Assembly: GCA_043779265.1 (NCBI GenBank)
Contig: JAYWEM010000155.1
Location: 1 to 34,250 of the forward strand
Length of the DNA: 34,250 nt
Reading direction: 5' to 3'
Source: a bacterium
GTDB taxonomy: Bacteria; Eisenbacteria; RBG-16-71-46
In this document: one piece after another, positions 13,592 to 34,250 of the stretch
Position numbering within the stretch: the stretch's first letter is position 1
Layout: the number at the start of each line of letters is the position of its first letter
Program-made: the position numbers and the translations under genes
Notes under the pieces: model-generated
Databases searched by the model: none
What the model saw: the letters and a program-made list of their open reading frames with translations, nothing else
Told to the model about the DNA's origin: nothing

Positions 13592-13603
13592 CGAAGCGCG
13601 GCG

Positions 13604-15768: not shown

Positions 15769-15796
15769 TGAACGCATCCTCCGCGGGGGTTAGCGT
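15768..15796 (+). promoter_or_regulatory. sigma70-type promoter for the lptC-lptB-rpoN operon
   Basis: TTGAAC (15768-73), 17-bp spacer, TAGCGT (15791-96). Confidence 0.55.
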
Positions 15797-15845
15797 GCCT
15801 CTCAGAGGTGGTCTCCGCAGGGAGCGGAGCATCCTCGACCCCTCC

Positions 15846-16433: not shown

Positions 16434-17197
16434 CCCAGGCCGCCGCTGAGCCGATCGTGGACGGAGCCGTCGCGACCGACGGGCTGGTGGCGCAGGGGCT
16501 CGAGCGCTACTACGGTCGCTGGCGTGTCGTCACTGGAGTCGATGTGAGCGTGCGCCGAGGTGAAGTGGTCGGGCTGCTCGGACCCAACGGCGCCGGCAAG
16601 TCGACGACCTTCCAGATGATCGTCGGGCTGTTGCGTCCCAACTCGGGTCGCATCCTGCTCGATGGCCGCGACATCACGCTCGAGCCGGTCTATCGCCGTG
16701 CGCGACTGGGGCTCGGGTATCTGGCGCAGGAGCCCAGCATCTTCCGCCGTCTCACGGTGCGCGAGAACGTGCTCGCGGTGCTCGAGACCATGGCGCTGTC
16801 GCGCAGTGCCCGCGAGGAGCGCCTAGGCGAACTGCTCGACGACCTGAATCTGACGCATCTGGCGAACCGGCAGGCGCACAAGCTCTCGGGTGGAGAGCGG
16901 CGCCGCGTCGAGATCACGCGCTCATTGGCGCGGCAGCCGTCGTTCATGTTGCTCGATGAGCCCTTCGTCGGGATCGATCCGATCGCGGTCGAGGAGATCC
17001 AGGCGATCATCGCGCGGCTGCGCGCTCGCGGGCTCGGCGTGCTCATCACCGATCACAATGTCCGCGTGACGCTCAACACGACGGACCGCTCTTACATCAT
17101 GTTCGATGGCCGCATCCAGCTCGCCGGTTCGCCTGCCGAACTGGCTTCGAACGCATTGGCTCGCCAGTACTATCTCGGCGACAGCTTCACCCTCTAG
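16430..17197 (+). CDS. lptB: LPS export ABC ATPase LptB
   Basis: GLLGPNGAGKSTTF, GYLAQEPSIFR, LSGGERRRVEI, LLDEPF.GIDPI, LITDHNVR, YYLG..F.L. Confidence 0.95.
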   Translation: MTQAAAEPIVDGAVATDGLVAQGLERYYGRWRVVTGVDVSVRRGEVVGLLGPNGAGKSTTFQMIVGLLRPNSGRILLDGRDITLEPVYRRARLGLGYLAQEPSIFRRLTVRENVLAVLETMALSRSAREERLGELLDDLNLTHLANRQAHKLSGGERRRVEITRSLARQPSFMLLDEPFVGIDPIAVEEIQAIIARLRARGLGVLITDHNVRVTLNTTDRSYIMFDGRIQLAGSPAELASNALARQYYLGDSFTL

Positions 17198-17210
17198 GGA
17201 AGGCACCGCC

Positions 17211-18644
17211 ATGGACATGAGACCATCGCTCCACTTGCAGCAGAAGCAGTCGCTGATCATGACGCCGCGACTCCAGCAGGCGCTCAAGCTGCTCCAGGTG
17301 CCGACACTCGAACTCCAGCAGATCCTCAAGCAGGAGATGCTGCAGAATCCGCTGCTCGAAGAGGTCGATGACGTCCTCGACCAGGAGGACATCGAGCGCG
17401 AGGGTTCGGCCGACGAGGAGAACAACAAGGAGGCGGAGGACCCGGCGGAGGACGACCCGATCGATTGGTCCGAGTACCTCCAGGACGGTCTCGATCGCAC
17501 CTACGTCCCGTCGAGTGAGCAGGGGATCGAGTTCCTCGAGAAGGTGCCGGTCACGCGGTCATCGATGGCCGAGGGCCTGCTCGAGCAGCTCCACTTCCTC
17601 AGCCTCTCCGAGGAGACGATGCGGATCGCCGAGTTCCTCGTGGGCTCGATCGATGATCGCGGCTGGCTGGTGACCCCGATCGAGGAGGTGGCCAGCATGA
17701 TGGGCACCACGGTCGAGAACGTCGAGCGGGTGCTTGCCGTGGTGCAGGCGCTCGAACCGACGGGTATCGGCGCGCGCGATCTGCGCGAGTGCCTGCTCAT
17801 CCAGCTCGATGCGCGCGGTGATCGCGACACGCTCCCGTGGAAGCTGATCCACGATCAGTTCGATCACCTTGTGAATCGCCGCTTCCCCGAGATCGCGCGC
17901 CTGCTCAAGGTGACGCCCGAGGAGGTGCAGGCGGGCGCCGACGCGATCGCCAGCCTGAATCCGCGTCCGGGAACCGCGATCGCCGACGAGGAGACGCGCT
18001 ACGTCACGCCCGACCTGCTGGTCGAGCGCGTCGATGACGAGTACGTGGTCATGCTGAACGACCGGCATGTGCCACGCCTGCGCATTTCGAGCGCCTACGC
18101 GAGCGTCATCAAGGGCAAGAAGAAGCCCGAGGCGACGACGACCGAGAAGGAGACGCGCACCTACATCAAGGACCGGCTCGCCTCGGCCAAGTGGCTCATC
18201 CAGACGATCGAGCAGCGCCGCCGCACGATGATCAGGGTGATGGAGTGCATCATCCGCGAGCAGCGCGAGTTCTTCGATCGCGGCATCGCCTACCTACGGC
18301 CGCTGACGCTGGCCGCCGTGGCCAGGCAGATCGACATGCATGAGTCCACCGTGTCGCGCGTCTGCAGCGCCAAGTACGTGCAGACGCCGCGCGGAGTCTT
18401 CGAACTCAAGTTCTTCTTCTCGAGCGGTCTCGAGACCGACGACGGCGAGGATGTCTCGGCGCGCACCGCCAAGGACATCATCCGCACGCTCATCGACGAA
18501 GAGAGCAAGCAGGACCCGCTCTCGGACCAGCGCATCGCGGAAATGCTGCATGAGAAGGGCCTCCACATCGCGCGACGGACCGTGGCGAAGTATCGTGAGC
18601 AACTGAGCATCCTGCCGGCGAGGTTCCGCCGGCGCGTCGCCTGA
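17211..18644 (+). CDS. rpoN: RNA polymerase sigma-54 factor
   Basis: Region I MTPRLQQALKLLQ, GIGARDLRECL, MHESTVSR, RpoN box ARRTVAKYRE. Confidence 0.97.
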   Translation: MDMRPSLHLQQKQSLIMTPRLQQALKLLQVPTLELQQILKQEMLQNPLLEEVDDVLDQEDIEREGSADEENNKEAEDPAEDDPIDWSEYLQDGLDRTYVPSSEQGIEFLEKVPVTRSSMAEGLLEQLHFLSLSEETMRIAEFLVGSIDDRGWLVTPIEEVASMMGTTVENVERVLAVVQALEPTGIGARDLRECLLIQLDARGDRDTLPWKLIHDQFDHLVNRRFPEIARLLKVTPEEVQAGADAIASLNPRPGTAIADEETRYVTPDLLVERVDDEYVVMLNDRHVPRLRISSAYASVIKGKKKPEATTTEKETRTYIKDRLASAKWLIQTIEQRRRTMIRVMECIIREQREFFDRGIAYLRPLTLAAVARQIDMHESTVSRVCSAKYVQTPRGVFELKFFFSSGLETDDGEDVSARTAKDIIRTLIDEESKQDPLSDQRIAEMLHEKGLHIARRTVAKYREQLSILPARFRRRVA

Positions 18645-18688
18645 CCCCGCCGCACCTGCTGTCCTCTCCGCTGAGAAGGAGGATCGCC

Positions 18689-19051
18689 GTGCAGATCCAG
18701 ATCACTGCGCGTCACCTGGAACTCCCTGCCGCCGCTCGCGCGTTCGCCGAGGACCGGCTCGAGAAGCTGCAGCGCATCAACTCCGACATCCTGGCCATCC
18801 ATCTCATCGTGAGTGCCGAGCGTGAGGGCCACTCCGCCGAGATCACGCTGCGCGTGCACCAGCACGACATCGTGATCTTCGAGAAGCACGAGCACGTCCG
18901 GACGGCGATCGAACTGGCCGCCGACCGCGTCGAGGAGCAACTCCGCCGCCTCAAGGAGAAGCGCATCGATGGTCGCCAGCGGCACGAGGGCGGCCGCGGC
19001 CTCAATGCCCAGCTCGCGGATACTCCCGCTGGAGACGAGGACGAGGACTGA
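18689..19051 (+). CDS. hpf: ribosome hibernation promoting factor (short HPF/RaiA)
   Basis: MQIQITARHL....A...LEKL, AI..A.DRVEEQLRRLKEK; AAGGAGG SD; canonical position after rpoN. Confidence 0.88.
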   Translation: MQIQITARHLELPAAARAFAEDRLEKLQRINSDILAIHLIVSAEREGHSAEITLRVHQHDIVIFEKHEHVRTAIELAADRVEEQLRRLKEKRIDGRQRHEGGRGLNAQLADTPAGDEDED

Positions 19052-20023
19052 GTGAAGACCCTGAGCGTCGCACGGCTCTACGAGGATCAGCGAGAGGACC
19101 TGCAGCTCGAGTTGCTCACCGAGAACGTGGCCTCGCCGTGTGACATCTCCGTCAGTGACATCCATCGACCCGGCATGGCGCTCATGGGGTTCGTCGAGAA
19201 CTTCCTGCCCGAGCGCATCCAGATCATGGCGCAGACGGAACTGACGTACCTCGCGACGCTGTCTCCGGAGGGCGTCCGCGCCGCGATCGACCGCCTGTTC
19301 CAGTTCACGATGCCGCTGATCGTCGTGTGCAAGGGACTCGAGGTGCCGCCCTACCTGCTGAAGTGTGCGGCGGAGAAGCAGGTGCCGGTGCTCCGCACCA
19401 CGCAGAGCACGACGCCGTTCATCCACTCGATCACCAGCTACTTGGACCACATGTTCGCGCCGTCGGTCTCGGTGCACGGCTCGCTGGTCGATTGCTACGG
19501 CGTCGGCCTGATGTTCACCGGGCGCAGCGCCATCGGTAAGTCGGAGACCGCGCTCGATCTGGTCGAGCGCGGTCATCGCCTCGTGGCCGACGACGTCGTC
19601 ACGATCACCAAGCGGCACGGCGACGTGCTGATCGGCACCGGGAATCAGCTGTTGCGGCACCACATGGAGATCCGCGGCCTCGGCATCATCGACGTGCAGT
19701 CGATCTTCGGCATCCGTTCGATCCGCGTGCAGAAGCGGGTCGAGGTCGAGGTGAGTCTCGCCGAGTGGTCCGACGACGAGGACTACGAGCGCGTCGGCAT
19801 CGACGAGCGCAAGACCTCGGTGCTGGGCGTCGAGATCCCGCTCGTGCAGGTGCCGATCACGCCGGGCAAGAACATCACGGTCATCGCCGAGGTGATCGCG
19901 CTGCACTACCTGGTCAAGGTCTATGGCGGCTATTCGCCGGCCGAGCGTTTGAACCAGCACATGCTCGAGGTGATGAAGCGCAAGAGCGCGGCGCGCGCCT
20001 GGGTGCGTGAGGACACCGAATGA
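19052..20023 (+). CDS. hprK: HPr(Ser) kinase/phosphorylase
   Basis: IHRPGMALMGF, VHGSLVDCYGVG, Walker A GRSAIGKSETAL, GHRLVADD, MEIRGLGII. Confidence 0.95.
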   Translation: MKTLSVARLYEDQREDLQLELLTENVASPCDISVSDIHRPGMALMGFVENFLPERIQIMAQTELTYLATLSPEGVRAAIDRLFQFTMPLIVVCKGLEVPPYLLKCAAEKQVPVLRTTQSTTPFIHSITSYLDHMFAPSVSVHGSLVDCYGVGLMFTGRSAIGKSETALDLVERGHRLVADDVVTITKRHGDVLIGTGNQLLRHHMEIRGLGIIDVQSIFGIRSIRVQKRVEVEVSLAEWSDDEDYERVGIDERKTSVLGVEIPLVQVPITPGKNITVIAEVIALHYLVKVYGGYSPAERLNQHMLEVMKRKSAARAWVREDTE

Positions 20024-20418
20024 GCGGCAGCATCCAGGGTCTGATGGTCATGCACGCCGATCTCGCCGGCGCACTGTTGCGTGCCGCCGAGAAGGTGTAC
20101 GGCCCGATCGAGGGCGTGCAGGTGCTCTCGAACAGCGATCTGTCGCGCGAGCAGCTGGAAGCCGAGATCGAGCAGGAGGTGAAGGGCTGGACGGCGGGCG
20201 GCGTGTTGTTCACCGACTTCTGGGGCGGCTCGTGTCACATGTGCGGTGCCAGCGCCGCGAGGCGGCACGGCGAGGTGGCGATCATGACCGGCGTCAATCT
20301 GCCGATGCTGCTCGACTACCTGCACAATCGCGACCGCCTGCCGCTCGGCGAACTGGTCGAGCGCCTGCAGCAGAAGGGCCGCGACAGCATCCGGATCCAG
20401 CGCGGCCAGACGGCATGA
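20020..20418 (+). CDS. PTS mannose/fructose family EIIA
   Basis: Phospho-His in VMHADLA, FTDFWGGS, TGVNLPMLL. Confidence 0.85.
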   Translation: MSGSIQGLMVMHADLAGALLRAAEKVYGPIEGVQVLSNSDLSREQLEAEIEQEVKGWTAGGVLFTDFWGGSCHMCGASAARRHGEVAIMTGVNLPMLLDYLHNRDRLPLGELVERLQQKGRDSIRIQRGQTA

Positions 20419-20900
20419 GCTGGCTGCTCCACCGGATCGACGATCGGCTCATCCATGGCCAGGTGCTGGTCGCCTGGGGGCAGCGCATGGACCCCGCGCG
20501 CATGTGGGTGGTCGATGATGCCGTCGCCGCGAGCGAGTGGGAGCGCCAGTTGTTCATGGAGTCGGCGCCCGGGTTCGAGGTGCGCGTGCTGAGCGTCGCC
20601 GAGGCCGCCGCAGCTTGGAGCGAAGAGGCCTCGGCCAAGGGCGGCGCGTTCCTGCTGGTGCGGGACCTCGCCACCGCCTCGCGGCTCGTGGCGGACGGGG
20701 CGCGGCCCGAGGCGTTCAATCTGGGCGGGCTGCACTACGCGCCCGGCAAGCTCAAGGTGAACGAGTACGTCTACTTGGACGATGCCGATCGCGCCGCGGC
20801 GCGCGAGTTGTTAGCGGCCGGCGTTGCGCTGGAAGTGCAGGACGTGCCGGCCTCGCGGGCGCAGGCGCTCACGGAACTCGATCCCCGGATGCGGGCATGA
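20415..20900 (+). CDS. PTS mannose/sorbose family EIIB
   Basis: RIDDRLIHGQV..AW, NLGGLH, VQDVP; ATGA overlap. Confidence 0.9.
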   Translation: MSWLLHRIDDRLIHGQVLVAWGQRMDPARMWVVDDAVAASEWERQLFMESAPGFEVRVLSVAEAAAAWSEEASAKGGAFLLVRDLATASRLVADGARPEAFNLGGLHYAPGKLKVNEYVYLDDADRAAARELLAAGVALEVQDVPASRAQALTELDPRMRA

Positions 20901-21607
20901 AGCCCGAGTTGGTGGGCACGGTGATGCTGGGCGGATTCGCGGCGCTCGATGCGACGCCCGTCGCGCAGACGCTGCTGTCGCAGCCGCTCGTCACCGCGAC
21001 CGCGCTCGGCCTGCTGTGGGGCGATCTGCCGACCGCGCTCGGCGTCGGTGTCGTGCTGCAGATCCTCGCAGCGAGCACGTCGCCTCTGGGCTCTCGAACC
21101 CCCGAGGACTACGCGACCGGCGGCGTCGTCGGCACTGGCGTTGCGCTGGCGCTCGGGGCGAACGCGCCCTACGAGTACTGGCGGCAGAGCGCCATGCTGA
21201 TCGGCGCGTTCGCCGGCATGCTGACGGCGGTCGGCGGTGTGCCGCTGATCAAGTGGCAGCGCCGCCGCAACGAAGGACTGAGCCGCTGGTGCGAACAGGC
21301 GCTTCGCAGCGGCGACGAGGCCGCCCTGTCGCGGGCGCATCTCGCCTCGGTCGCGCTCGCCTTCGGCGTCGGTGCGGCCTACTGCGCCGCCGCGATGGCG
21401 CTTCTGATACTTCTCACCAAGGGTCCGGTCGTCAGCGAGTCGATGCGACTGGCGCGCGGCTGGGAGTTGCTGCAGCCGCTCTGGCTCGGCTTCGGCTTCG
21501 CGCAACTCCTGCACGCGTTCGTCCAGCGCCGACTGACGCGTGCCGCCGTGTTCGGCGCCTCGCTGATCGGCGCCTGGCTCGTGTTGGTGATGGAGTGGAT
21601 GCGATGA
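20897..21607 (+). CDS. PTS mannose family EIIC
   Basis: ALD.....Q.LLSQPLV....LGLLWGD..TAL.VG..LQ.......PLG...P.D; hydrophobic; ATGA overlap. Confidence 0.8.
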   Translation: MKPELVGTVMLGGFAALDATPVAQTLLSQPLVTATALGLLWGDLPTALGVGVVLQILAASTSPLGSRTPEDYATGGVVGTGVALALGANAPYEYWRQSAMLIGAFAGMLTAVGGVPLIKWQRRRNEGLSRWCEQALRSGDEAALSRAHLASVALAFGVGAAYCAAAMALLILLTKGPVVSESMRLARGWELLQPLWLGFGFAQLLHAFVQRRLTRAAVFGASLIGAWLVLVMEWMR

Positions 21608-22365
21608 CGCACCTGCCGGGATCCACGCTGTTCGCGATGGGCATGCGCGCGCAATTGCTGCAGGCGACCTGGAACTTCGAGCGCCAGCAGGGAGTGGGCT
21701 GGGCCTACGCTCTGCAGCCTGCGCTCGAGAAGCTCTACCCCGATGCCGAGACGCGCCGCGAGCGTCTGGCCGAGCACACCGCCTACTTCAACACCCAGCC
21801 GACGCTGGCCTCGCTCGCATTGGGCGCCGTCGCGCGCCTCGAGGCCGATCGCGCCGCCGGCCACGGCCCCGATGCCGCCGGCATCGGCCGCATCAAGTCG
21901 GTGCTCGGCTCGACGCTGGCGGCGATGGGGGACCGGCTGTTCTGGTTCTCGCTGCGGCCGTTCGCCGCGGCGCTCGGCGTGCTGGTCGCCCTGGCGCGGC
22001 CCGACTCGATCGCCCCGGCGGTGATCCTGGTCGGCGTCTACGCCAGCGTGCATCAGGCCGTCCGGCTGCTCGGGGTGGGCTGGGGCTATGCCAAGGGCCC
22101 TGCGGTGCTGGGAGGGGCGCTTCGCAGCCGTCTGGAGGCCTCGGTGACGCTGCTGGCCTACGCCGGCTGCATCATCCTCGGGGTGGCCGTGGCGTGGTCG
22201 CTGGCGCCGGGAGGCGAGCCGCGCCCGGTCGCGCTACAGTCGGCGCTCGCCTGCGGGCTGGGGCTCGGGCTCCTGACCGCCCAGCGAGCGCGGCCGTCGC
22301 CCACGCAGTGGGCTCTGGCGCTCGGGGCGTTGGGACTCTATGCCGCCTGGCAGCGGCTCGGTTGA
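21604..22365 (+). CDS. PTS mannose family EIID
   Basis: LQATWNFERQQGVG, H..YFNTQP, LAAMGDRLFWFSLRP. Confidence 0.88.
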   Translation: MTHLPGSTLFAMGMRAQLLQATWNFERQQGVGWAYALQPALEKLYPDAETRRERLAEHTAYFNTQPTLASLALGAVARLEADRAAGHGPDAAGIGRIKSVLGSTLAAMGDRLFWFSLRPFAAALGVLVALARPDSIAPAVILVGVYASVHQAVRLLGVGWGYAKGPAVLGGALRSRLEASVTLLAYAGCIILGVAVAWSLAPGGEPRPVALQSALACGLGLGLLTAQRARPSPTQWALALGALGLYAAWQRLG

Positions 22366-22381
22366 GAACACGGAGGGCCGC

Positions 22382-22651
22382 TTGTCGGAGATCCAGCTCG
22401 TCATCTTGAACCAGTTGGGCCTTCATGCGCGCGCCTGCGCGCTGTTCGTCAAGGCCGCATCCAAATACAAGTCGGACATCCTCGTGGCGCGCGATGACCT
22501 CGAGGTGAATGGCAAGAGCATCATGGGCGTGATGATGCTGGCCGCCGAGGAGGGCGCCACCATCGTCGTGAAGGCGGACGGCCCCGACGAGCAGGACGCG
22601 CTCGTCGCGATCCGCGAGCTGGTCGAGGGCAAGTTCGGGGGCGAGCCTTGA
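22382..22651 (+). CDS. ptsH: phosphocarrier protein HPr
   Basis: NQLGLHARA (His15), VNGKSIMGVMML (Ser46); GGAGG SD before TTG 22382. Confidence 0.93.
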   Translation: MSEIQLVILNQLGLHARACALFVKAASKYKSDILVARDDLEVNGKSIMGVMMLAAEEGATIVVKADGPDEQDALVAIRELVEGKFGGEP

Positions 22652-24402
22652 TCCTGCAGGGGATCGGAGCGTCGCCCGGTCTCGCCCTCGGGGCCGTGCA
22701 TCGGCTCGAACCCGAGGTGCTGACGGTCCATGAGCGCGAGATCGCGCCAGCGGCCGTCGATGCGGAGATGGCGGGCTTCCAGCGCGCGATCGAGGAGTCG
22801 CGCCGCGAGCTGGCCGGTATCCGAGACGGCATCGGCGCCGAACTCGGCCCCGACGAGGCCGCGATCTACGACGCGCATCTGATGATCCTCGATGATCCCG
22901 AACTGAAGAAGTCGGTCGAGCACGGCGTGCGCGTGCAGCTCCGTAACGTCGCCTGGGTGTTCCGCAGCGCCATGGCCGCCTTTGCGGCCGCGTTCGAGAA
23001 GCTCGAGGACGAGTACCTGCGTGAGCGCCGGGCCGACATCCTCGATGTCGAGCGCCGCGTGCTGCGCCATCTGCTCGGCACCGACTCGCGCCTCATCGAT
23101 CAGGTGACCGCGCCCGTGATCGTCGTGGCGCACGACCTCGGCCCGAGCGAAGTGGCGAGCCTGCCGCGCGACAAGGTGCTGGCGTTCGTGACCGAGGTCG
23201 GCGGGCGCACGTCGCACGGCGCCATCGTGGCGCGCGGCCGCGGCATCCCGTCGATCGTGAGCGTGCGAGGCGCGCTGCACGCCGTGCGCAACGGCATGGA
23301 CGTGGCCGTCGATGGCTTCGCCGGCACGCTCGAGTTGGAGCCCGATCAGGAGCGCCAGGCGGTCTACGCCGCGCGCTTCGAGAAGCAGACACTGCGTCGC
23401 GCCGCCGCGCGCGCCATGCAGGGCGAGCCGTCGGTCACTCTCGATGGCAAGGCCATCGAGCTGGGCGTCAACATGGAGCAGCCCGAGGATGTGACCGAGG
23501 CGCTGGCCGCCGGGGCCGAGAGCATCGGGCTGTTCCGCACCGAGTTCTTCTATCTCAACCGCATCGACCTGCCGGGCGAGGATGAGCAGTACCGCGCCTA
23601 CGCGCGCGTCTGCGAGTCGATGCAGGGTCGCCCCGTGCTGTTCCGCACCATGGACCTGGGCGGCGACAAGGTGGCGAGCTATCTGGGTGTGACGCACGAG
23701 ACCAACCCGTTCCTCGGGTTGCGCGGCATCCGCTTGGCGCTCGCGAGCCCCGACATGTTCCGCACCCAGCTGCTGGCGCTGCACCGCGCCAGCGCGCATG
23801 GCCGCGTGCGGCTCATGTTCCCGATGGTCTCGAGTGTCGATGAGCTGGATCGCGCGCTGGCGCTGCGCGACGAGGCGGTGGCCGACCTCAAACGCAAAGG
23901 GCTGGCGCAGGCCGATTCGGTTGAGACCGGCATCATGATCGAGACCCCGAGTGCGGTGTGGATGGCCGATGCGCTGGCCAAGAAGTCGGCGTTCTTCTCG
24001 GTCGGAACCAACGACCTGACGCAGTACACGCTCGCCATGGACCGCGACAACGAGCGGCTCTCGGGCCTCTACGAGCCGCTCGACCCGGCCATCCTGCGCA
24101 GCATCGCGCACACCATCCGCGCCGCGAAGGCGTCCGGTCGCTGGGTCGGCGTGTGCGGCGAGATGGCGGGCGACCCGCACACCGCCGTGCTGCTGGTCGG
24201 ACTGGGCGTTGATGAGCTGAGCATGTCGGCGTTCGATCTGCCGCGCGTGAAGGCGGCGATCCGCTCGGTCCGCTACGACGCCGCGAAGGCGCTCGCCGAC
24301 GAGGCGCTGACCTTCTCCTCGTCGGTCCTTGTGCGCGCATTGGTGCGAGACCGCATCGACACTCTGCTCCCCAGCTACCTGGCCTACGAACGCCTGACCT
24401 GA
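22648..24402 (+). CDS. ptsI: PTS enzyme I (PEP-protein phosphotransferase)
   Basis: GIGASPG, GGRTSH, GLFRTEF, RTMDLGGDK, ETNPFLGLRGIR, GTNDLTQY, VCGEMAG; no N-terminal GAF domain. Confidence 0.95.
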   Translation: MILQGIGASPGLALGAVHRLEPEVLTVHEREIAPAAVDAEMAGFQRAIEESRRELAGIRDGIGAELGPDEAAIYDAHLMILDDPELKKSVEHGVRVQLRNVAWVFRSAMAAFAAAFEKLEDEYLRERRADILDVERRVLRHLLGTDSRLIDQVTAPVIVVAHDLGPSEVASLPRDKVLAFVTEVGGRTSHGAIVARGRGIPSIVSVRGALHAVRNGMDVAVDGFAGTLELEPDQERQAVYAARFEKQTLRRAAARAMQGEPSVTLDGKAIELGVNMEQPEDVTEALAAGAESIGLFRTEFFYLNRIDLPGEDEQYRAYARVCESMQGRPVLFRTMDLGGDKVASYLGVTHETNPFLGLRGIRLALASPDMFRTQLLALHRASAHGRVRLMFPMVSSVDELDRALALRDEAVADLKRKGLAQADSVETGIMIETPSAVWMADALAKKSAFFSVGTNDLTQYTLAMDRDNERLSGLYEPLDPAILRSIAHTIRAAKASGRWVGVCGEMAGDPHTAVLLVGLGVDELSMSAFDLPRVKAAIRSVRYDAAKALADEALTFSSSVLVRALVRDRIDTLLPSYLAYERLT

Positions 24403-24424
24403 CCCCTGTGGAGATTCCCCCGAG

Positions 24425-25501
24425 ATGGCGAGCCCGCAAGTGAGTCTCGAGCCCCCGTATGGCGAGCGCGATCCGCGCGGCATGTCCGCCCTGATCGAGG
24501 CGCTGCCCGACCACATCGACCAGGCGCTCGAGTTGGCCGTGAGGTCACCATGGACGCCGCCGAATCGTGAACCCGACCTGCTCGCCTACGGCGGCATGGG
24601 CGGTTCGGGCATCGCTGGAGAACTGACCGCCGCGATGATCGCCGATGAGGCGCCGCGGCCGTTCCTCGTGGTGCGCGACTACGCGTGGCCCGCCTGCGTC
24701 ACGACGCGCTCGCTGGCCGTGCTCTCGAGCAACAGCGGTGACACCGAGGAGACGATGGCACTGGCGCGCCAGGCCGAGCATCGGCGCGTGCCCGCGATGG
24801 CGCTGTGCTCAGGCGGTGCGCTGGCCGAGCACGCCCGGCGGCTCTCGCTGCCGCTGCACGGCATGCCCTCGGGGATGCCGCCTCGCGCCGCGCTCTTCCA
24901 TGGGTGGGTACCGGTGACGCTGGTGCCGCACGTGCTCGGCTGGTGCTCGGACCCGGTGCCCGCGTGGCGCGAGGCCAGTTCGCTCCTGCGCGATCGTCTG
25001 GCCCGGCTGGCCCTGGCCGTGCCGACGGCCTCGAACCCCGCCAAACAGCTGGCCCATGCGCTCGACGGCAAGCGTCTCCACGTGTACACGGGCCCCGGCA
25101 TGATGGCCGCGATGGGCGTGCGATGGAGACAACAGCTCAACGAGAATGCTAAAGTCCTCGCCCATTCAGCGGCGGTGCCCGAGCTGGACCACAACGAGAT
25201 CGTGGGCTGGCAGGGGGCCGAACCGGGCCGAGGCGAGCTGGCGATCGTGGTGTTGCGCGATCGCGAGGACAGCGCCGAGACCCGGCTCCGGCTCGACGTC
25301 ACGTTGGAATACGCGACGCGGCAGGGCGCCACGGTTCACACGGTCGAGAGTGAGGGGGAGAGTCGCATCGCGCGGCTGGCCTCGCTCGCGCAGACCGCCG
25401 ACTTCGTCAGCCTCCATCTTGCGCTGCTCGGCCAGGTGGATCCCACCGATATCACCAGCATCGAGCTGCTCAAGCGCCGGCTCGCCGAGAGCCGCGCTTG
25501 A
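24425..25501 (+). CDS. bifunctional phosphoglucose/phosphomannose isomerase (PGI/PMI)
   Basis: [55 protein letters not shown]. Confidence 0.9.
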
Positions 25502-25559
25502 TGAACCCGCGACCTGGGTCGGTTGTGCCGACCCTGGTCGCTCCATGAGGAGTCACACG

Positions 25560-26699
25560 ATGGCTGCGCGCCACCTGTTCACGTCCGAATCGGTCACCGA
25601 AGGCCACCCCGACAAGATCGCGGATCAGATCTCCGACGCCGTCCTCGACGCCATGCTGGCGCAGGACAAGATGAGCCGCGTGGCCTGTGAGACCATGGTG
25701 ACGACCGGACTCGCCGTGGTGGCGGGTGAGATCACGACCAAGGCGTACGTCGAGATCCCCAAGCTCGTGCGCGCCGTGATCCATGACATCGGCTACAACG
25801 ACGCCTCGTACGGGTTCGACTCGCACACGTGCGCCGTGGTGACCACGATCGACCAGCAGTCGCCCGACATCGCGATGGGCGTCAACACCGGTGGCGCCGG
25901 CGACCAGGGCCTGATGTTCGGCTTCGCCTGCAACGAGACGCCCGAGCTGATGCCGCTGCCGATCATGCTGGCGCACAAGCTGGCCATGAAGCTGTCGCAG
26001 GTGCGCAAGAAGGGCGTGGTCGACTACCTGCGCCCGGACGGCAAGACGCAGGTGACGGTGGAGTACGAGGGCACGGTCCCGGTGCGCATCGACACCGTGG
26101 TGCTCTCGACGCAGCACTCCGAGAACGTCACCCAGGCCAAGATCCGTAAGGACATGCTGGAGAAGGTGATCATGCCGCTGCTGCCCAAGCGGCTGCTCAA
26201 GGGCAAGGCCCCCAAGTTCCACGTCAACCCGACCGGAAACTTCGTCGTGGGCGGCCCGATGGGCGACTGCGGGCTGACCGGGCGCAAGATCATCGTCGAC
26301 ACCTACGGCGGCATGGGCCGTCACGGCGGCGGCGCGTTCTCCGGCAAGGACCCGAGCAAGGTGGACCGCTCGGCCTGCTACGCTGCGCGCTACGTGGCCA
26401 AGAACCTGGTGGCCTCGGGACTGTGCGATCGCGTCGAACTTCAGGTGGCCTACGCGATCGGCGTCGCGCAGCCGGTGAGCATCACCGTCGACACGTTCGG
26501 CACCGGCAAGGTGAGCGATGACAAGATGACGAGCCTGGTGCGCAAGCACTTCGACCTGACGCCCAAGGGCATCATCGACCACCTCAAGCTGCGTCGGCCC
26601 ATCTACCGCAAGACCGCGGCCTACGGCCACTTCGGCCGCCCCGACTTCGCGTGGGAGAAGACCGACAAGGCGAAGTTGCTGGCGGGCAGCGTTCGCTGA
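25560..26699 (+). CDS. metK: S-adenosylmethionine synthetase
   Basis: [59 protein letters not shown]. Confidence 0.98.
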
Positions 26700-26729
26700 T
26701 CCAAGGGCGCGCCGACTGGACGTGACGAG

Positions 26730-26761
26730 AGGCCCCGGTCCGTGTGGACCGGGGCCTTCTT
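26730..26761 (+). terminator. intrinsic terminator after metK
   Basis: AGGCCCCGGTCC-GTGT-GGACCGGGGCCT perfect 12-bp stem followed by TCTT. Confidence 0.8.
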
Positions 26762-26837
26762 GCGTGGGGGGGCATTTCGGAGCGTGGGGATGCAGGGCTC
26801 CCGAGGGTGCTCAGGCGTCGAACGAACCAGCTAGGTG

Positions 26838-26877
26838 AAAATAAAACCTTGAAACAGAAATACCATCCGTCCAAGAT
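26838..26877 (+). promoter_or_regulatory. putative promoter with AT-rich UP element for the propeller/teneurin-like unit
   Basis: AAAATAAAA tract, TTGAAA (26849-54), 17-bp spacer, CAAGAT (26872-77); conspicuously AT-rich patch; GGAGG SD at 26929-33. Confidence 0.45.
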
Positions 26878-26943
26878 GCCGCGCATCGCTCAAGGCTCAT
26901 GAGCGCCATTGTGTAGCGGATATCCTGGGGAGGTTTCCGGCGG

Positions 26944-28831
26944 ATGCGATCGATGCCATGGCTCCACGCGGCGATTCTCTCGGCTGCCGTGACGCCGAGC
27001 TTCGGGTCGGTCAAGACTTCTGCCGTGCGTTCGACTTCGATCCCTGTGTCCCCTGCTTGCATCGATTGCATCGACGTTCGCACAGGTGCGTCATTCCAGA
27101 CCGCGGTCCTGACCGTGGGCGAGTCTGGCGCGATCGACTCGACCAGTTCTTCCGCCTCGAGACTCTGCGTGGGGGCGCTTGCCGCGGTGCACTCGGTCGT
27201 GTGCTCGGACGGTGCTGGCGGAGCGCTGGTCGCGTGGGTCGAGCCCGCGGGTGAGGACAACGACCTACGCCTGCAGCGCGTCGACGCGCAGGGATCGATC
27301 GTTGAAGGCTGGCCGCAGGGAGGCCGCATCGTCTGCGACTCGCGCGGCTCGCAGAGTCAGCCGGCACTGACACGCGATGGCTCGGGCGGCATCTGGCTCG
27401 CGTGGAGCGACCATCGCGGCTCTCCCCGCGCGAGCGTACGCGTCATGCGCCTGGAGTCGGACGGGACGCCTTCGGGCAACTGGCCGGGGGGTGGTCGAGC
27501 GGCCACCGCATCGACCGCGGGGCAAGCTGTGCCACGGCTGGCGCCGAGCGCCGATGGGCGCCTGTGGCTACTTTGGCAAGAGGGACGTGCGGGGGTCCCG
27601 TGACCTGCGCGCGCTGGTATTCGAGCCGAGTGGGTCGCTCGCTGCGAACTGGCCCGATTCGGGCCGGGTGGTGGTGGGGGGTGCCGCTGACCAGTTCCGA
27701 CCACGGATCGCGGCCGATGCGACTGGCGGGATGTACGTGGCCTGGAGTGAGGCGGGAGTAGGAGGTGAGAGCGTGCATCTCACCAGAGTCGGCACCTCGG
27801 GCGCGCGCGCCGACGGTTGGGACGAGGTCTCCTTGAGCGGCGCGCGCCACGAGGCGCGAGTGAGTTCCATCCTCGCCGATTCGAACGGGGTGCATGTGGC
27901 CTGGTCGAGTGGGCAGGAGGACTCGGTCGTCGCGCGCGTCGCGCGTCGCATGGCCAGTGGTGGACTCGCGAGCGGTTGGCCGGAGTCGGGCGCGATCCTG
28001 GGAGGCTCGACCGGCGACGATCCCGTGCTGCTCGCCGACGGGAGCGATGGTGTCTATGCGGCCTGGACCCGAGCGGGCGAGCGTGGCGACGGAGTGGTGG
28101 CGCTGACTCGGCTGGATGAATCCGGCGTGGTGGTCGAGGGATGGCCGAGCGTGGGACTCGAGATGCCGGATGCGCCGGGGGACGAGCATGCGCCGAAGCT
28201 GGTCGCGGCCGACGCGGGAGTCCTCGTCTCGTGGTCGAGAGGCGAGGGCACGGCAGGCGGCACCATCCTGCGATCCGGCGCCAGCCTGGGCGAGATGCTT
28301 CCCGCACTGCTATCCACTGCGAGCTGGCCGGACCTGGTGCGCCTCGAGTGGTCGCTCGCCGGAGCCGTGCCCTACGCGATCGGCGTGGAACGGCGGGTGG
28401 AGCAGGGTGAATGGGTGCGCCTGCATGAACTCGAGCCCGACGCGGAGGGCCGCATGCCCGTCGAGGATCGCGACATCGAGCCCGGCGGCCGGGTGATCTA
28501 TCGCCTGCGCCTCTCGACACCGTCGATCGAGGCGACGATGCCGGAGGTGGAGGTTCTGGTGCCCCGTGCGGCGCCGCTGGCGCTGCACCGCATCCGCATG
28601 CAGGGCGAGCGACTGCAGGCATGGTTCTCGCTCGCGAGCCGCGAGGAGGCGCGCCTCGAGGTGTTCGACGTTCAGGGTCGGCGGGTGTTCCGCCAGGCGG
28701 TTCGCGCGGAGCACGCGGGGGACTCGGAGGCATCGTGGCCGACGCCGGTGCGATTGCGCTCGGGCGTGTGGTTCGCGCGATTGACGCAGGGCCGCGAGAG
28801 CCGCGGGCTGCGTGTGGTGCTGACACGATGA
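26944..28831 (+). pseudogene. secreted repeat (beta-propeller-like) protein with C-terminal FlgD-Ig/T9SS-like domain; +1 frameshift in the G5 run at 27591-27595 (real or sequencing error)
   Basis: Seven repeats of type xDGxGGxxVAW with GWP motifs run across ORFs 26944-27603 and 27377-28831. Removing one G gives ...QEGRAGSRDLRALV..., a 628-aa protein ending LEVFDVQGRRV...SGVWFARLTQG. Confidence 0.75.
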
Positions 28832-31800
28832 GGCCTAGGCTCCGGCTCTCGGCCGGCCGCGGACTGGTCACGGCCCTGTTGTTGCTGGCCGCGGCACTCC
28901 TGCCGCGTGAATCCGCGGGCGCCTGCGCCGATACCGTGGTGGCGCGCGCGGTCAAGCGCTATGCGATCACCGGCAGTTCGCCGCAGACGTTCACCGAGAA
29001 CTGCACGTTGGCGGTGGTGGCGGGTCGCCGCTATCTGGTGGAGGTGCTGCGGCCGACCGGCGGGCCCAGCGGCAGCTACGCGCGCGTGGTCTACAAGGGC
29101 GTCGAGGTGCTGGGCACCGACGACCTGGGTGCCGGGGGCGTGCTGGTGAGCCGCGTGATCGCACCCGAGACCACCGCGACGCTGCTCGTGACGCTCTCGG
29201 GCAGCGTCGGATTCGGCGTGGACCTGCGCATCACGCACGTGCCGGAGCCGATGTACGCGGTCTTCAACAGGACGTTCGTGCGCGGCAGCGGCGCACCCAA
29301 GTGGCAGTCGCAGACGTTCGGGTTCCTCGACGGCACGCCGCCCGGGCCGTACCGGATGACCATCGTCAACGGCAACCCCGACTCCTCGCTGCGCACGCAG
29401 AACACCGAGATCGAGCTGAACGGCAACCCGGTCGTGTTCACGGGTGAGATCACGCAGGGCCGCGCGATCCTCACCTACGATGTGACACTGGAGTCCGAGA
29501 ACACCGTCCGGGCGAAGATCCACAGCCCCTCGGGCCGCAAGGTGAGCCTGTACTTCACGGCCACCGACACCTCGGGGCCTGCCATCGCGTTCGCCGCGCC
29601 ACCCGAGACGCTCGTGACACGTGATGCCACGATCGCGATCGGCGGCTTCGTGACCGAACCCGAGACCGGCGAGCGCCTGACGATGGACGGTGCGGCGGTA
29701 GCGCTGGTCGACGGCGCATTCTCGACGAGTGCGGCGCTGGCGACCGACGGCTGGCGTCAGTTCACGTTCGAGGCCACGAACGGCGGCTGCCAGAGCGCGA
29801 CAGCGACGCGCGTGGCGATTCGGGACACCTTGTCCCCGAGCATCACGATCAACTCGCCGAACCAGGCGTCCACGACCGTCTCTTCGGCTACGGACAGCAT
29901 CACCATCTCCGGCACGTGGCGCGACTCGACCCGGACGACGATCCGCGTGGACGGAGATACCGTGGCGACGGGCTGGGCGCTGCACTCGCCACTCGGGTTC
30001 TCGAGCAAAGTGCCGCTGGACTACGGGCCGAATGGGATCCTGGTCATGGGCCACGACGCGGCGGGCAACATCACGCGACTCAAGCGTTATGTGTTCCGCG
30101 CGCCGCCGGGCGGCTCGGGAGCGGACTCGAGCGCGTTCGCGGGCGGCGTCCCGGCGCTGCACGCCACCGAGGCGGCGGCGTTCCGGGGATCGATCCGGTT
30201 CCTGATCGCCGGCCAGAGCGGCATCGACACGACGGCGCTGCTGCCGGCACGCGAGGCCGTCGTCCGTGGGCGCGTGCGCTCACGCGACTTCGGCCCGCTC
30301 GGCGGCGTGCGGGTGAGCGCCATGGGGCAGAGCGCACTCGGTTCCACCGAGACCCGCAACGACGGCTGGTTCGACCTGGTGGTGAACGGCTCGGGTCCGG
30401 TGGTGCTGCGGTTCACGCGGCAGGAGTTCCTCGAGGTGCAGCGCCAGCTCGAGGTCCCGGCGAACGACTTCGCCACGCTCGGCTCCGATGTGACGATGAT
30501 CGGCCGCAGCACGAAGCTGTACGCCGTGAACACGAGCGGTACGCCGGCCCCCATCCGCGGCCGGTTCGAGGGGGACGCCAACGGCGAGCGCGAGATGACG
30601 ATGCTGTTCGCGCCTGCGACGGTGTGCTCGGTGACCACGAGCGGCGGCACCAGCACGTACACATCGTTCTCGGTGCGCTTGAAGGAGTTCACGGTGGGCG
30701 CTGAAGGGGACGAGTCGATGCCGGGTTCGTTGCCGCCGAGTTCCGCCTACACCTACTGCGTCGACATGACCGTGGCCGAGGCGGAGTCCGGCATACCCTC
30801 GGATGCGCCCGCCGACGTGCGGTTCAGCAAGCCGGTGGTGACCTACGTGCGCGAGTTCCTGGGGCTCAGTGTGGGCATGCGCATGCCTTCGGGTTGGTAC
30901 GATCAGCGGCGTGGCGTGTGGGTGGCTTCGGAGGACGGCTGGATCGTGAAGGTGCTGGGCAGCTCGAGCGGCCTGGCACTGCTCGACACGGATGGAGACG
31001 GCATTCACGACTCGCAGTCGAGGTTCGACAGTCTCGGTATCGACAGTCTGGAGCGGGCGCGGGTGGCGAGTCTGTACGCGGCCGGAGACAAGCTGTGGCG
31101 GGTCCGGGTGGAGCATTTCTCGCCGCGCGACCTCAACCTGAACGTGGCGGCGCTGACACTCGCCGCGAGCCCGGCCGCAGCGCGAGCGGGGCAGTTCGGG
31201 CAGTTGTTCGAGTTGCCGAGCGCCTCGTGCGGCTGCGTGATCGAGAACGAGAATCGCGTGCTGGGCGAGACCATCCCGGTGCAGGGCACGCCCTACGCCC
31301 TGCACTACCGCAGCAACCGCCAGCCTGGTGACAAGGCGATGCGTTCGATCCGCATCCCGCTCACGACGACGTTGCCCACGGGGCTGCGAGCGGTACGGCT
31401 CGAAGTCGAGGTGGCGGGTCGACGGTTCGCATGGCGGTTCCCATCGCCCGTGGCGAACGACGTGTTCCTGTTCGACGACTGGGACGGGACCGATGTGTAT
31501 GGTCGGCAGGTGCGTCGCTCGCTCGAGGCGACTGTGCGCATCGGCTACGAGTTCGATGCGTTCTTCTCCGCAGCGAGGCCGGGGCAAGGTGGCGCGTTCG
31601 GAGACGGCTCGCGCATCAAGACGACAGGGGCCTTCTCCGCATCGCAGGATCGCGCGGTGGGACGCATCGTGTGGAGCACGCAACGCATCGCCTTGGGAGC
31701 GCCGAGCATGGCTGCGGCGGGACTCGGTGGGTGGACGATCTCCCCACATCACGTGTACGACTCCAACGGTCGCGGCGCGCTCTATCGAGGTGATGGCGGG

Positions 31801-34250
31801 TTCCAGTACGGGACACGGAACTATGCGACCATCCGACCATTCGCGGGCAGCGGGCAGCTGATCTCGGTCCAGCCACAACGGCCACCGGACGGGACTCTCG
31901 CACTGCACAACCAGCTCATGAACATCAGTCCGGGAGACCTGCTCGTGTGGCCGAACGGGGACCTCTACTTCTCGGACGTGGGGCTCGGGGCCGTGGGACG
32001 GATCGCCGCGGACGGGAAGTTCTATCGCGTGATCGGCAACTCGACGTTGGAGCCGGGCTCCTATGCCGGCGATGGGACGCTGGCGAACGCCTGCGCGCTC
32101 AACAAGCCGCGGTCGATCGCTCGCATGGCCAACGGGAACCTCGCCGTGCTCGATCAGCAGTTCGCCGCGGTCTACGAAGTGCGTGCAGACAACCGCATCT
32201 ACCGCTTCGCAGGCGGATCCACGGGGCCGTGGGTGGAGGACACGCTCGCGATCCATGCGAGGCTGAACAATCCCTACTCCATGGCCGTCGGACCCGATGG
32301 CGTCATGTACATCGCGGATGAGATGCCGGGGAACCCGAGTCGCGGCAGGATCGTCCGCGTCGGGACGGATGGCCGGATCCGGACCTTCGCCGGCTCGGCG
32401 GGCGCTGCCACGCCCAACTTCGGAAACGAGACGAGCGGACGCGCGGACTCGCTGGCGATCGCACCCCGGATCGACGACATCGTCGTGGCCCGGAACGGGG
32501 CGATCTACTTCACGGAGCAGGCGCTCGAGCGCATCCGGCGTATCACGCCGGACGGGATACTGAGCACCGCCTACGTCGACGACTTGGCCTTTCCGAGCGC
32601 CGTCACGGAGGCCCCGGACGGGTCCATCTGCTTTCTGAGGGCGAAGGACAATGCAGTCACGGGCGCCTATCGGCTCGAACCCACGGGGGCGGCGACCGCG
32701 ATCGCGGGCGGAATCGCGCCGGGGGACTGCGCGAGTTTCGCATCACTCGCCGACGGTCCGTTCGCCGCCGCAGTCCGATTCCGCGGGCTCACCTCGCTCA
32801 CGTTCGGCCGGACCGGCGAGCTCTTCATCGCACAGACGTGCAATGGCGGTTCCGGCATCCTGCGAATGTCTCAGGAAATGCCCGGACAGGGTGCCGATGA
32901 GATCGCCGTGCCGAGCACCGATGCGAGCGAGGTGCACTATTTCACGCTGAGCGGCCGTCACCTGCGAACGGTCGATGTCACGACCGGGATCGTCTCCCAT
33001 CGCCTCGAGTACGACAGCGGCGGCAGGCTCGTGCGCATCCTGGATGCCGACGGCGACACGACGCGCATCACACGCGACGGCAGCGGCGTCGCGCTGACGA
33101 TCGTCGCCCCGAGGGGACAGGTGACGACGCTGACGCTCGCCGACTCCGCTCGGGTGCTCGCTCAGGTGACTGCGCCGGGCTCTCGCACTCACACGATGAC
33201 CTACACCGATGGCGGGCTGCTGGAGACGTACACCAATCCGCGCTCGAGGACCTGGGACTACGTGTGGGACGCCGCGCAGGGCCGGCTGTACGAGGACCAC
33301 GACCCTGCAGGGGGATGGCAGAGGTTCGCCCTGACGCAGGGGGACACCTCGCGCCGGGTCGTCAAGACCACAGCCGGGGCCCGTAGCACCGAGTATGTGC
33401 TCCTCGAGCGTCGAAACGGGTTCCGCCGACACTTCATCCATGCACCCGGCGGCGTGACGCAGAGCTGGGTGGACAGTGTCGGAACCGGCTCGGGGACAGC
33501 GACCATCGACTCCCTTCGCGGTCCAGTCACGGTCTCGCGCGGGCCAGCCGGGGAGCAGCGGATCGGATTCCAGCGCAGGGACCCGCGCTACGGCTGGGTC
33601 GCCCCGGTCGACACGCACGTGGTGTTCTCGCTGACCTCCAGCGGACCGGCCGCCTACGTCGGCTCGAGGCGGCTCCGCAGTGGCGCGACCGTGCAGGAGA
33701 GCTTCGCCATGAATGGGCGACGTTGGCTGAGCATGTACGACACGACAGCGATGCGGCACCACGCGCGAACGCCTGCCGGCCGATTGACGACGACGCAGCT
33801 GGACGCAGCGGGCCGCCCGACCAGCAGCACGCTCGGCACGCTGGCGCCGACCACCATCACGTACGACACGCACGGCCGTCCGACGCTGGTGGCGCAGGGC
33901 GGTCGCGGCCTGCGGCTCGCCTACGACGCGCTCGGCCGCACGTCTCATGTGCGCGACACGCTCGGTCGCATGACCACGTTCGGGTACGACGACGCCGACC
34001 GCATCACGTCGCAGGTGCTGCCGGGGAACCGCACGGTGGGGTACGGCTACGACGCCAACGGCAACCTGACGAGCCTGACGCCGCCCGGCCGTACGGCGCA
34101 CGCGTTCGCGCACACGCCGATCGATCTGGCGGAGTCCTACACGCCGCCCGCGGTCGCCGGCGTCTCGGACCCCGCGACCCGCTACACGTACGACCTCGAC
34201 GGCCTCCTGACGTCCCTGCAGCGCGCCGACGGCGGTGACGTGAGCCCGGG
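28828..34250 (+). CDS. teneurin-like RHS/YD-repeat protein, 3' truncated by the window end (>1800 aa)
   Basis: ATG 28828 (ATGA overlap); no in-frame stop seen to the window end. Signal peptide; DTxxPxI Ig-like repeats (29566, 29824); TTR-like AVVRGRV..GPLGGVRVS..TETRNDGWFDLVVNG (30256 on); FN-plug ENRVLGETIPVQGTPYALHYRS, WDGTDVYGRQV, GLGGWTISPHHVYD; NHL repeats (MAVGPDGVMYIADE); YD repeats (YDALGR, YDDADRI, YDANGNLTSLTPPGR). Confidence 0.9.
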   Translation, partial: MRPRLRLSAGRGLVTALLLLAAALLPRESAGACADTVVARAVKRYAITGSSPQTFTENCTLAVVAGRRYLVEVLRPTGGPSGSYARVVYKGVEVLGTDDLGAGGVLVSRVIAPETTATLLVTLSGSVGFGVDLRITHVPEPMYAVFNRTFVRGSGAPKWQSQTFGFLDGTPPGPYRMTIVNGNPDSSLRTQNTEIELNGNPVVFTGEITQGRAILTYDVTLESENTVRAKIHSPSGRKVSLYFTATDTSGPAIAFAAPPETLVTRDATIAIGGFVTEPETGERLTMDGAAVALVDGAFSTSAALATDGWRQFTFEATNGGCQSATATRVAIRDTLSPSITINSPNQASTTVSSATDSITISGTWRDSTRTTIRVDGDTVATGWALHSPLGFSSKVPLDYGPNGILVMGHDAAGNITRLKRYVFRAPPGGSGADSSAFAGGVPALHATEAAAFRGSIRFLIAGQSGIDTTALLPAREAVVRGRVRSRDFGPLGGVRVSAMGQSALGSTETRNDGWFDLVVNGSGPVVLRFTRQEFLEVQRQLEVPANDFATLGSDVTMIGRSTKLYAVNTSGTPAPIRGRFEGDANGEREMTMLFAPATVCSVTTSGGTSTYTSFSVRLKEFTVGAEGDESMPGSLPPSSAYTYCVDMTVAEAESGIPSDAPADVRFSKPVVTYVREFLGLSVGMRMPSGWYDQRRGVWVASEDGWIVKVLGSSSGLALLDTDGDGIHDSQSRFDSLGIDSLERARVASLYAAGDKLWRVRVEHFSPRDLNLNVAALTLAASPAAARAGQFGQLFELPSASCGCVIENENRVLGETIPVQGTPYALHYRSNRQPGDKAMRSIRIPLTTTLPTGLRAVRLEVEVAGRRFAWRFPSPVANDVFLFDDWDGTDVYGRQVRRSLEATVRIGYEFDAFFSAARPGQGGAFGDGSRIKTTGAFSASQDRAVGRIVWSTQRIALGAPSMAAAGLGGWTISPHHVYDSNGRGALYRGDGGFQYGTRNYATIRPFAGSGQLISVQPQRPPDGTLALHNQLMNISPGDLLVWPNGDLYFSDVGLGAVGRIAADGKFYRVIGNSTLEPGSYAGDGTLANACALNKPRSIARMANGNLAVLDQQFAAVYEVRADNRIYRFAGGSTGPWVEDTLAIHARLNNPYSMAVGPDGVMYIADEMPGNPSRGRIVRVGTDGRIRTFAGSAGAATPNFGNETSGRADSLAIAPRIDDIVVARNGAIYFTEQALERIRRITPDGILSTAYVDDLAFPSAVTEAPDGSICFLRAKDNAVTGAYRLEPTGAATAIAGGIAPGDCASFASLADGPFAAAVRFRGLTSLTFGRTGELFIAQTCNGGSGILRMSQEMPGQGADEIAVPSTDASEVHYFTLSGRHLRTVDVTTGIVSHRLEYDSGGRLVRILDADGDTTRITRDGSGVALTIVAPRGQVTTLTLADSARVLAQVTAPGSRTHTMTYTDGGLLETYTNPRSRTWDYVWDAAQGRLYEDHDPAGGWQRFALTQGDTSRRVVKTTAGARSTEYVLLERRNGFRRHFIHAPGGVTQSWVDSVGTGSGTATIDSLRGPVTVSRGPAGEQRIGFQRRDPRYGWVAPVDTHVVFSLTSSGPAAYVGSRRLRSGATVQESFAMNGRRWLSMYDTTAMRHHARTPAGRLTTTQLDAAGRPTSSTLGTLAPTTITYDTHGRPTLVAQGGRGLRLAYDALGRTSHVRDTLGRMTTFGYDDADRITSQVLPGNRTVGYGYDANGNLTSLTPPGRTAHAFAHTPIDLAESYTPPAVAGVSDPATRYTYDLDGLLTSLQRADGGDVSP

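Follow-up and report, generated by a model that had tools for sequence, protein, structure and literature searches.

Bacterial teneurin-like proteins (TLPs) are an already described family of polymorphic toxins, for which the solved structure of the B. inaquosorum protein (BiTLP) serves as the paradigm. In BiTLP the tip is severed at the DPxG core and hidden in the shell, and the family combines toxic tips with downstream immunity genes (PMC13018210). A second cut occurs at G723|S724 in the FN-plug by a mechanism that the authors call unresolved, and the serine at this cut is not among the inclusion criteria for TLPs as given in that report (PMC13018210). Raoelijaona et al. (2026, PMC13018210) surveyed 139 TLP genomes in six phyla and placed the Paenibacillaceae nearest to animals in their tree. 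According to the same source only 3 of the 9 tips tested were toxic in E. coli, a signalling role is left open, and no delivery machinery is evident for TLPs; export and release stay open (PMC13018210).

Two further systems are relevant here. Type A cargo of the type 9 secretion system (T9SS), which a review places in Bacteroidota, is exported by Sec, recognised by its tag, passed through SprA and anchored or released by PorU (PMC10202324). The genes of the TANFOR toxins lie close to T9SS cargo genes or immediately follow them, and export of these toxins by the T9SS is described as a proposal (Jana et al. 2020, PMC7073777). In the available text of Zhang et al. 2012 no passage on Por secretion was found. 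Our literature searches, which left subscription journals outside, found nothing linking the T9SS or PorSS with Eisenbacteria, no useful result on the T9SS in neighbouring phyla and, among the papers listed, nothing on TLPs with a T9SS-tagged partner.

The DNA analysed here (the window, 34,250 nts) is an entire contig (C155) of a genome (G000); the nearest named homologs are Ca. Eisenbacteria. The block at 9402-26699, which we take by eye to comprise the housekeeping genes pyrG, kdsA/C/D, lptC/B, rpoN, hpf, hprK, a mannose-type PTS, ptsH/I and metK, is interrupted by two genes, one on the minus strand for a thioredoxin-TPR protein and one for DUF1579. Ahead of it, a frame of 465 aa with an HNH nuclease motif at its C-terminus (6891-8288) lies between ribosomal/translation-type genes and pyrG. 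The TLP module follows metK; in four relatives examined this slot is taken by other genes (the contig of a fifth ends at metK), and the module is therefore regarded as an accessory insertion. The genes found after metK in relatives are here on another contig, C191. A perfect 12-bp inverted repeat (26730-26757), right after metK, lies at the left edge of the module; having no T-run, it was not listed by the terminator scan. Neither a sigma-70 promoter nor a T-tailed terminator was seen at 26500-29000.

The first-pass annotation of this DNA had proposed a frame that begins at ATG 28828 and stays open up to the window end, and translation bears this out, giving 1807 codons (1807 aa) with zero stops. 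The ORF lister gives this frame as 28621-34248, 3'-open. The longer start was rejected: the 69 extra codons overlap the upstream gene and have a GC3 of 0.57, as against a steady 0.81-0.93 along the gene itself. Since the extension combines low GC3 with overlap, and since the relative P0002 (72 % identical) begins at the position matching ATG 28828, the sequence makes it likely that the gene starts there. Residue 1806 of the window TLP (P0001) aligns with residue 1804 of P0002, at 72 % identity over the whole stretch; as P0002 has 2372 aa, about 565 codons must be missing past the contig end. This missing 3' third was found on no contig of the genome when all were searched, nor do the terminal 21-55 bases of the window occur a second time elsewhere. 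One contig in each of two public runs (X1 and X2) stops at base 34250 as well. Run X3 contains a related sequence with 7 listed differences in the TLP gene, 5 of them synonymous. Elsewhere in the genome, a 42-codon scrap of TLP YD shell, 76 % identical to P0002, sits between unrelated genes (G000:C105:36381-36506) and spans the point where the window TLP breaks off.

The window protein is almost certainly a bacterial TLP, judging from its TTR, NHL and YD profile matches in teneurin order and from the alignment of its residues 441-1778 with BiTLP, TIP insert included, at an E value of 6e-160. The identity given by the first-pass annotation thus holds, and the protein adds a member to a family already known. 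Animal teneurins match at E values of 1e-28 to 1e-45. A generic Rhs/YD protein was rejected, as non-TLP Rhs structures match only short YD stretches (E 1e-4 to 1e-9), and so was a teneurin of the animal type, which would have an intracellular domain, a type II membrane helix and eight EGF repeats, all absent here, while the TIP domain is present. In a protein atlas the window protein matched only unnamed clusters, all below 0.9.

All features of the TLP lie on the plus strand, and Pfam profile matches support the order and coordinates of the teneurin domains as first annotated, with two corrections. A Sec/SPI-type signal peptide at 28828-28923 was recognised by eye from its basic n-region, hydrophobic core and A-G-A before the mature Cys, both in the protein's own sequence and in the N-termini of 35 relatives; inspection of the N-terminal sequence revealed no lipobox. 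It is followed by two tandem beta-sandwich domains of jelly-roll/CUB-like type (28924-29577, aa ~33-250) that belong to no Pfam family. In the single-sequence model this pair has a pLDDT of ~55 and the whole N-terminal part, of low confidence, one of 42, and its best structural matches (Z 8.8-7) are tied and generic. The signal peptide, beta-sandwich region and two Ig repeats of the earlier description are thus retained, with the beta-sandwich modelled at low confidence. The two bacterial Ig-like stalk domains (29578-30117) are covered by Glucodextran_B in 2 stretches (46.5 bits), with a Pfam match at aa 337-423. The TTR-like domain (30247-30483) is matched by TTR_TEN PF25020 at aa 474-552 with 84.9 bits (cut-off 27).

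The first correction concerns the TIP (teneurin insertion protein) domain, a bacterial-only insert between TTR and FN-plug that had been overlooked and that is seen at about 30484-31080 as an unbroken alignment to the B. inaquosorum TLP. The second concerns the FN-plug, which begins near 31080 and not at 31240; its boundaries (31081-31845) were mapped from BiTLP residues 673-928, and its Pfam match at aa 842-911 reaches 26 bits, just under the cut-off of 27.8, in the cut-short TLP. The NHL beta-propeller (31846-32880) is placed by TEN_NHL at aa 1014-1239 (32.3 bits, cut-off 27.1) and by the BiTLP alignment. The linker that had been described before the YD shell is found at aa 1358 (32899-32991) and coincides with the start of the TEN_YD-shell profile. 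The first half of the YD shell, recognised by TEN_YD-shell and RHS_repeat, runs from 32899 to 34250, where the contig ends ~565 codons before the expected stop; TEN_YD-shell, matching from aa 1361, stays under its cut-off of 50 with 35.7 bits in this incomplete gene. Both the FN-plug and the YD-shell profiles pass their cut-offs in the full-length P0002.

It had also been suggested that a TLP from a candidate lineage would bear on the bacterial origin of teneurins. The lineage is indeed a candidate one, but a special bearing is not borne out, the scores of P0002 against vertebrate teneurins being unexceptional among the three TLPs compared. Bit scores against most solved vertebrate teneurins are 274-310 for P0002, 375-410 for the Bacillota-type TLP P0053, which has an S-layer domain, and 254-280 for a Sorangium TLP, a comparison of three proteins rather than a tree. 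A particular link between the Eisenbacteria-type TLP clade and animals is thus not supported by sequence; this clade retains the TIP domain that animals lack. The account of teneurin origin stays as it was.

The chain break of BiTLP at G723|S724 aligns with G802|C803 of the window TLP (31231-31236), and the conserved serine of the FN-plug is thus replaced by Cys803, a conservative swap of nucleophiles. Across 192 TLP cores this column holds Ser in 155, Cys in 25, Thr in 2 and other residues in 10, with Ala in none; the Cys residues fill one clade of 19 members and occur in 6 other sequences. Such exchange of hydroxyl and thiol without alanine is expected of a side-chain nucleophile in an N-O or N-S acyl shift, as in inteins and Ntn hydrolases. 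Since Ser, Cys or Thr occupies the position in 182 of the 192 homologs and Ala in none, the alignment suggests that the residue at the plug cut acts as a nucleophile. A counterpoint comes from Tse15, where the serine at a similar cut is dispensable and a downstream glutamate is needed, according to the authors' reply in PMC13018210. In TLP cores, acidic residues are frequent 3 and 5 positions past the plug cut.

The reading of the protein as an encapsulated toxin, also proposed on the first pass, gains support through its relatives, the window gene's own 3' end lying beyond the contig. A two-aspartate DPxG core pattern is present in 23 of 25 long relatives, P0002 among them. Their tips measure 88-164 aa, and only 3 pairs are alike at E<1e-3. 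When the tips of 15 proteins were scanned with profiles, one TseH match (45.9 bits) and one DUF4157/eCIS core exceeded their cut-offs, and two matches, to Ntox44 and Tlde1, were weak. Moreover, small ORFs, mostly of lower GC3, directly follow 9 of the 11 complete TLP 3' ends; the 6 scanned gave no confident family. In one relative an orphan RHS core with a weakly Colicin M-like tip and a small downstream gene of its own (L030:14531-16004) comes after the main TLP with its immunity-like gene. The sequences make it very probable that a TLP and the small gene downstream form a toxin-immunity system, and by analogy with the relatives and BiTLP the window TLP is likely a shell-packaged antibacterial toxin. 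It could be argued instead that it is an adhesin or a kin-recognition surface protein like animal teneurins and carries no toxic cargo, a reading to which the Ig stalks and NHL propeller lend themselves, as do the minority of tips toxic in E. coli and the signalling role that the authors leave open (PMC13018210), and the position of the gene's own tip past the contig end. We consider this improbable, since the relatives show the pattern of polymorphic toxins: a protease core, tips that are hypervariable, domains like those of effectors, orphan cassettes and small genes downstream.

Directly upstream of the TLP lies a second gene, the partner, which is frameshifted in the window. Its 5' piece (26944-27603, plus strand, 219 aa) encodes a signal peptide and the first ~60-residue propeller repeats and shares 33-45 % identity with intact partners over their N-terminal third. 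The frame changes near 27590-27600, after which this piece runs into a stop. The 3' piece (27590-28831, plus strand, in the frame of ORF 27377-28831), 40 % identical to the partners in loci L029 and L030, carries the remaining propeller repeats, an FN3-like domain (~28300-28570) and, at ~28570-28828, a C-terminal signal domain of T9SS type A; it ends in a stop codon that shares an ATGA with the TLP start. The contigs from runs X1 and X2 have the same frameshifted partner sequence and may be the source of this DNA. In a related sequence, 4 of the 5 differences in the partner are synonymous.

Intact partners, mostly 630-700 aa long, start with a signal peptide, which is followed by about seven repeats of 60 residues each, an FN3-like domain and the C-terminal domain. 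The T9SS tag profile TIGR04183 matches the C-terminus of 9/9 intact partners at E<=0.1 (best 3.3e-5), with scores near the cut-off. The AlphaFold model of the L029 partner is all-beta (pLDDT 81), and its best matches, at 8-13 % identity, are propeller-plus-Ig proteins. A profile of the first 50 residues of the partner was not specific to TLP-linked copies. We rejected a fusion of partner and TLP by read-through, as the TLPs have signal peptides of their own; fusions were likewise found neither in 9 matches among longer proteins nor in 210 TLPs, which is weak evidence. A second TLP module in the same genome (L001, G000:C153, 1-7124), 32 % identical, has an intact partner with a GTGA overlap and a Ser at the plug cut, and likewise breaks off where its contig ends; by its core it falls into the smaller of the two partner-bearing clades described below, by its partner into the main group. 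The C153 partner passes the TIGR04183 cut-off, and the frameshifted window copy is not among the 107 listed matches.

These 107 TIGR04183 frames come from the window genome, which also encodes SprA (a 2132-aa frame) and adjoining PorV and PorU genes, all three over their cut-offs, at C127:11443-15833 and C46:3005-9403. SprA occurs in 186 of the 206 genomes of the phylum. Profiles for GldK, GldM and GldN matched nothing in this 92 % complete genome, the GldM and GldN profiles having matched no control either. With GldK, GldM and GldN not found, the T9SS of the window genome, as read from its genes, is at least non-canonical and looks reduced or divergent. Two secretins of the genome lie in operons that by eye are of the pilM-Q type. 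These secretins look pilus-linked, and nothing else was seen in the genome that would let a 2400-aa protein cross the outer membrane.

Is the partner a fixed companion of the TLP? TLPs occur in 20 of the 206 genomes of the phylum, at 24 places that are all within the window's family, and the partner is directly upstream at 20 of the 22 places with upstream DNA (2 have none). It is present at 10 of the 11 testable places outside the set from which its profile was built. The two family TLPs without a partner have other N-termini: one (L037, G010:C46) has Cys-rich repeats, the other (L141, G126:C111), with a repeated beta-propeller N-terminus, stands on a stretch of 52 % GC that may be foreign, and either may be foreign or mis-binned. 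In the reverse direction, the partner profile was run across the family with 13 candidates scored per genome. All of the 19 matches with at least 520 bits (10 outside the training set) precede a TLP, and scores then drop to 436. Four of the next-ranked paralogs were fetched, and none of the 3 with enough downstream DNA precedes a TLP. The junctions of partner and TLP overlap or lie within 40 nts. Among 81 further TLP loci, 80 of them metagenomic, 4 have a partner, each directly upstream, and 77 have none, 46 of these with at least 2 kb of upstream sequence. Some loci without a partner (e.g., L084, L093, L095 and L099) share an N-terminal domain pair similar to that of the window TLP, so this pair does not require the partner everywhere.

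In a tree of 192 cores, the loci that bear a partner are found in two clades, one of 32 sequences (support 1.0) and one of 4 (support 0.99). Of 25 partners, 22 form one group, which also takes in a single free paralog, and the other 3 cluster with free paralogs. Over 10 pairs the identity of partners correlates with that of the TLP N-domains (Pearson 0.92), Ig stalk (0.71) and core (0.29), a gradient that is also expected from adjacency alone in genomes that are kin. Partners have diverged to 25-54 % identity (77 % in one pair) and cores to 35-57 % with the pairing kept, and the modules lie at different chromosomal sites.

A number of modules are damaged or flanked by other elements. Broken ones were seen at L031 (internal stop), L032 (IS insertion) and L138 (frameshifts in both genes). 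At L130:10944-11793 a second partner gene begins, ~2 kb past a complete TLP and at the edge of the contig, which may point to tandem modules. A short tyrosine recombinase gene together with a gene for an Ig-repeat lipoprotein-like protein with HYDIN/ASH-type domains flanks three modules (L029:15241-17549, L030:2411-4428 and L031:2626-4772), upstream in one and downstream in two, and may be a mobility cassette.

These observations make it probable that the partner is functionally tied to the TLP. The genes could also be fellow travellers, the partner being an ordinary secreted propeller without any physical role, whose promoter came to serve an ancestral TLP and which has been inherited along with the toxin. 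Its propeller family counts a dozen or more paralogs and the T9SS tag about 100 frames in the window genome, the loci are kin, similar TLP N-termini exist without a partner, and in the window the partner is broken while the TLP frame is open, all of which would suit such an origin. Nevertheless, we hold it to be unlikely, since the pairing is kept despite the divergence of partner and core, across chromosomal sites and in two separate TLP clades, since none of the 19 top-scoring partner matches stands alone, and since the partner differences in the related sequence are, with one exception, synonymous.

We therefore propose, with about even odds in its favour, that the TLP is a likely shell toxin whose gene takes second place in a conserved module of two genes, and that its T9SS-tagged propeller partner likely carries it to, or anchors it at, the cell surface. 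Both proteins have signal-peptide-like N-termini, and the stop codon of the first gene overlaps the start codon of the second or nearly reaches it, from which we infer joint translation of partner and TLP and their entry into the periplasm through Sec. The coupling of the genes suggests that the partner would then bind the N-terminal beta-sandwich pair of the TLP and either take it through the T9SS-like translocon or tether it afterwards, PorU fixing the partner to the surface. No T9SS tag was found on the TLP, whose C-terminus in relatives is the variable tip; as this end is the payload, it leaves no room for a tag. By analogy with BiTLP, where these events are known, the shell would fold round the tip, the DPxG aspartyl core would sever it inside, and the second cut, with Cys803 as the presumptive nucleophile of the window TLP, would loosen the lid in the FN-plug. 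The unrelated tips of the relatives, some of them like known antibacterial effectors, and the small gene would then act as toxin and immunity. Given its frameshifted partner, the window copy of the TLP may no longer be displayed.

Within this proposal, T9SS-dependent export or anchoring of the TLP is a reading of the sequences to which we give slightly less than an even chance. The folded shell may exceed the width of the SprA pore, and we know of no case of a tagless protein carried by type A cargo, nor did one appear by title in the literature on hitchhiking cargo. The toxin might leave otherwise, by vesicles, lysis or a channel of another kind, with the partner exported alone to serve outside as a dock or a target-binding adhesin. 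The coupling data fit this separate exit too, the shell is large and the Gld motor parts were not found by profile. A propeller distantly like the partner's is moreover found in cis, within the YD repeats (aa ~997-1377) of P0131, an Rhs protein of Ca. Limnocylindria, another phylum, as would fit a role in targeting. We rate it as rather unlikely all the same, since the genome offers no other evident outer-membrane passage for so long a protein, its secretins looking pilus-linked, and the overlap of stop and start codons suggests joint handling from synthesis on. As to the proposal that the TLP travels with its partner, its most specific form, a two-partner export module in which a T9SS signal is borrowed in trans, a reduced SprA-PorV-PorU apparatus works without the known motor outside Bacteroidota, and the plug is uncapped by a Ser/Cys acyl shift, is speculative and, taken as a whole, doubtful.

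For the question of TLP delivery, the fixed T9SS-tagged partner provides a concrete candidate, and the natural swap of Ser for Cys makes the mechanism of the plug cut directly testable. SprA, PorV, PorU and about 100 tagged proteins are here encoded in a candidate phylum, while reviews, as far as their available text goes, place the T9SS in Bacteroidota. The TLP family was known; the fixed partner and the Cys at the plug site are what the first-pass annotation had missed.

In comparison with the described systems, the window TLP shares with BiTLP (PDB 9IFO and 9PT5; PMC13018210) the order TTR-TIP-FN-plug-NHL-YD and the Ig stalk, and its relatives share the DPxG core, a small variable tip and a small downstream gene. 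It differs by its lineage, which is outside the six phyla reported as surveyed (Eisenbacteria has 0 mentions in the main text of PMC13018210 and 10 searchable supplements of 11), by having no lipobox although its host is diderm, by a Cys in place of the conserved S724, and by its coupling to an upstream T9SS-tagged gene, of which the available text of PMC13018210 makes no mention. With the animal teneurins (Ten-2, -3, -4 and Ten-m) it has in common the superfold domains and their order. However, it lacks their transmembrane/EGF part and possesses TIP, while its relatives keep an active-type core and have no fixed Tox-GHH end. The partner and its presumed machinery resemble the type A cargo and PorU/PorV attachment complex of the T9SS (PMC10202324) in the C-terminal beta-sandwich tag, SprA, PorV and PorU; here, in contrast, GldK, GldM and GldN were not found, and the available text of PMC10202324 describes no untagged protein being carried. 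The closest likeness in gene arrangement is with the TANFOR toxins of Bacteroidetes (PMC7073777), where a toxin with a signal peptide and no T9SS tag is likewise encoded beside T9SS cargo genes. Their scaffold is unrelated, and, as far as that report describes them, they are enriched near varied cargo within Bacteroidetes, whereas the TLP module pairs its toxin nearly one-to-one with a single partner family in a phylum outside Bacteroidota.
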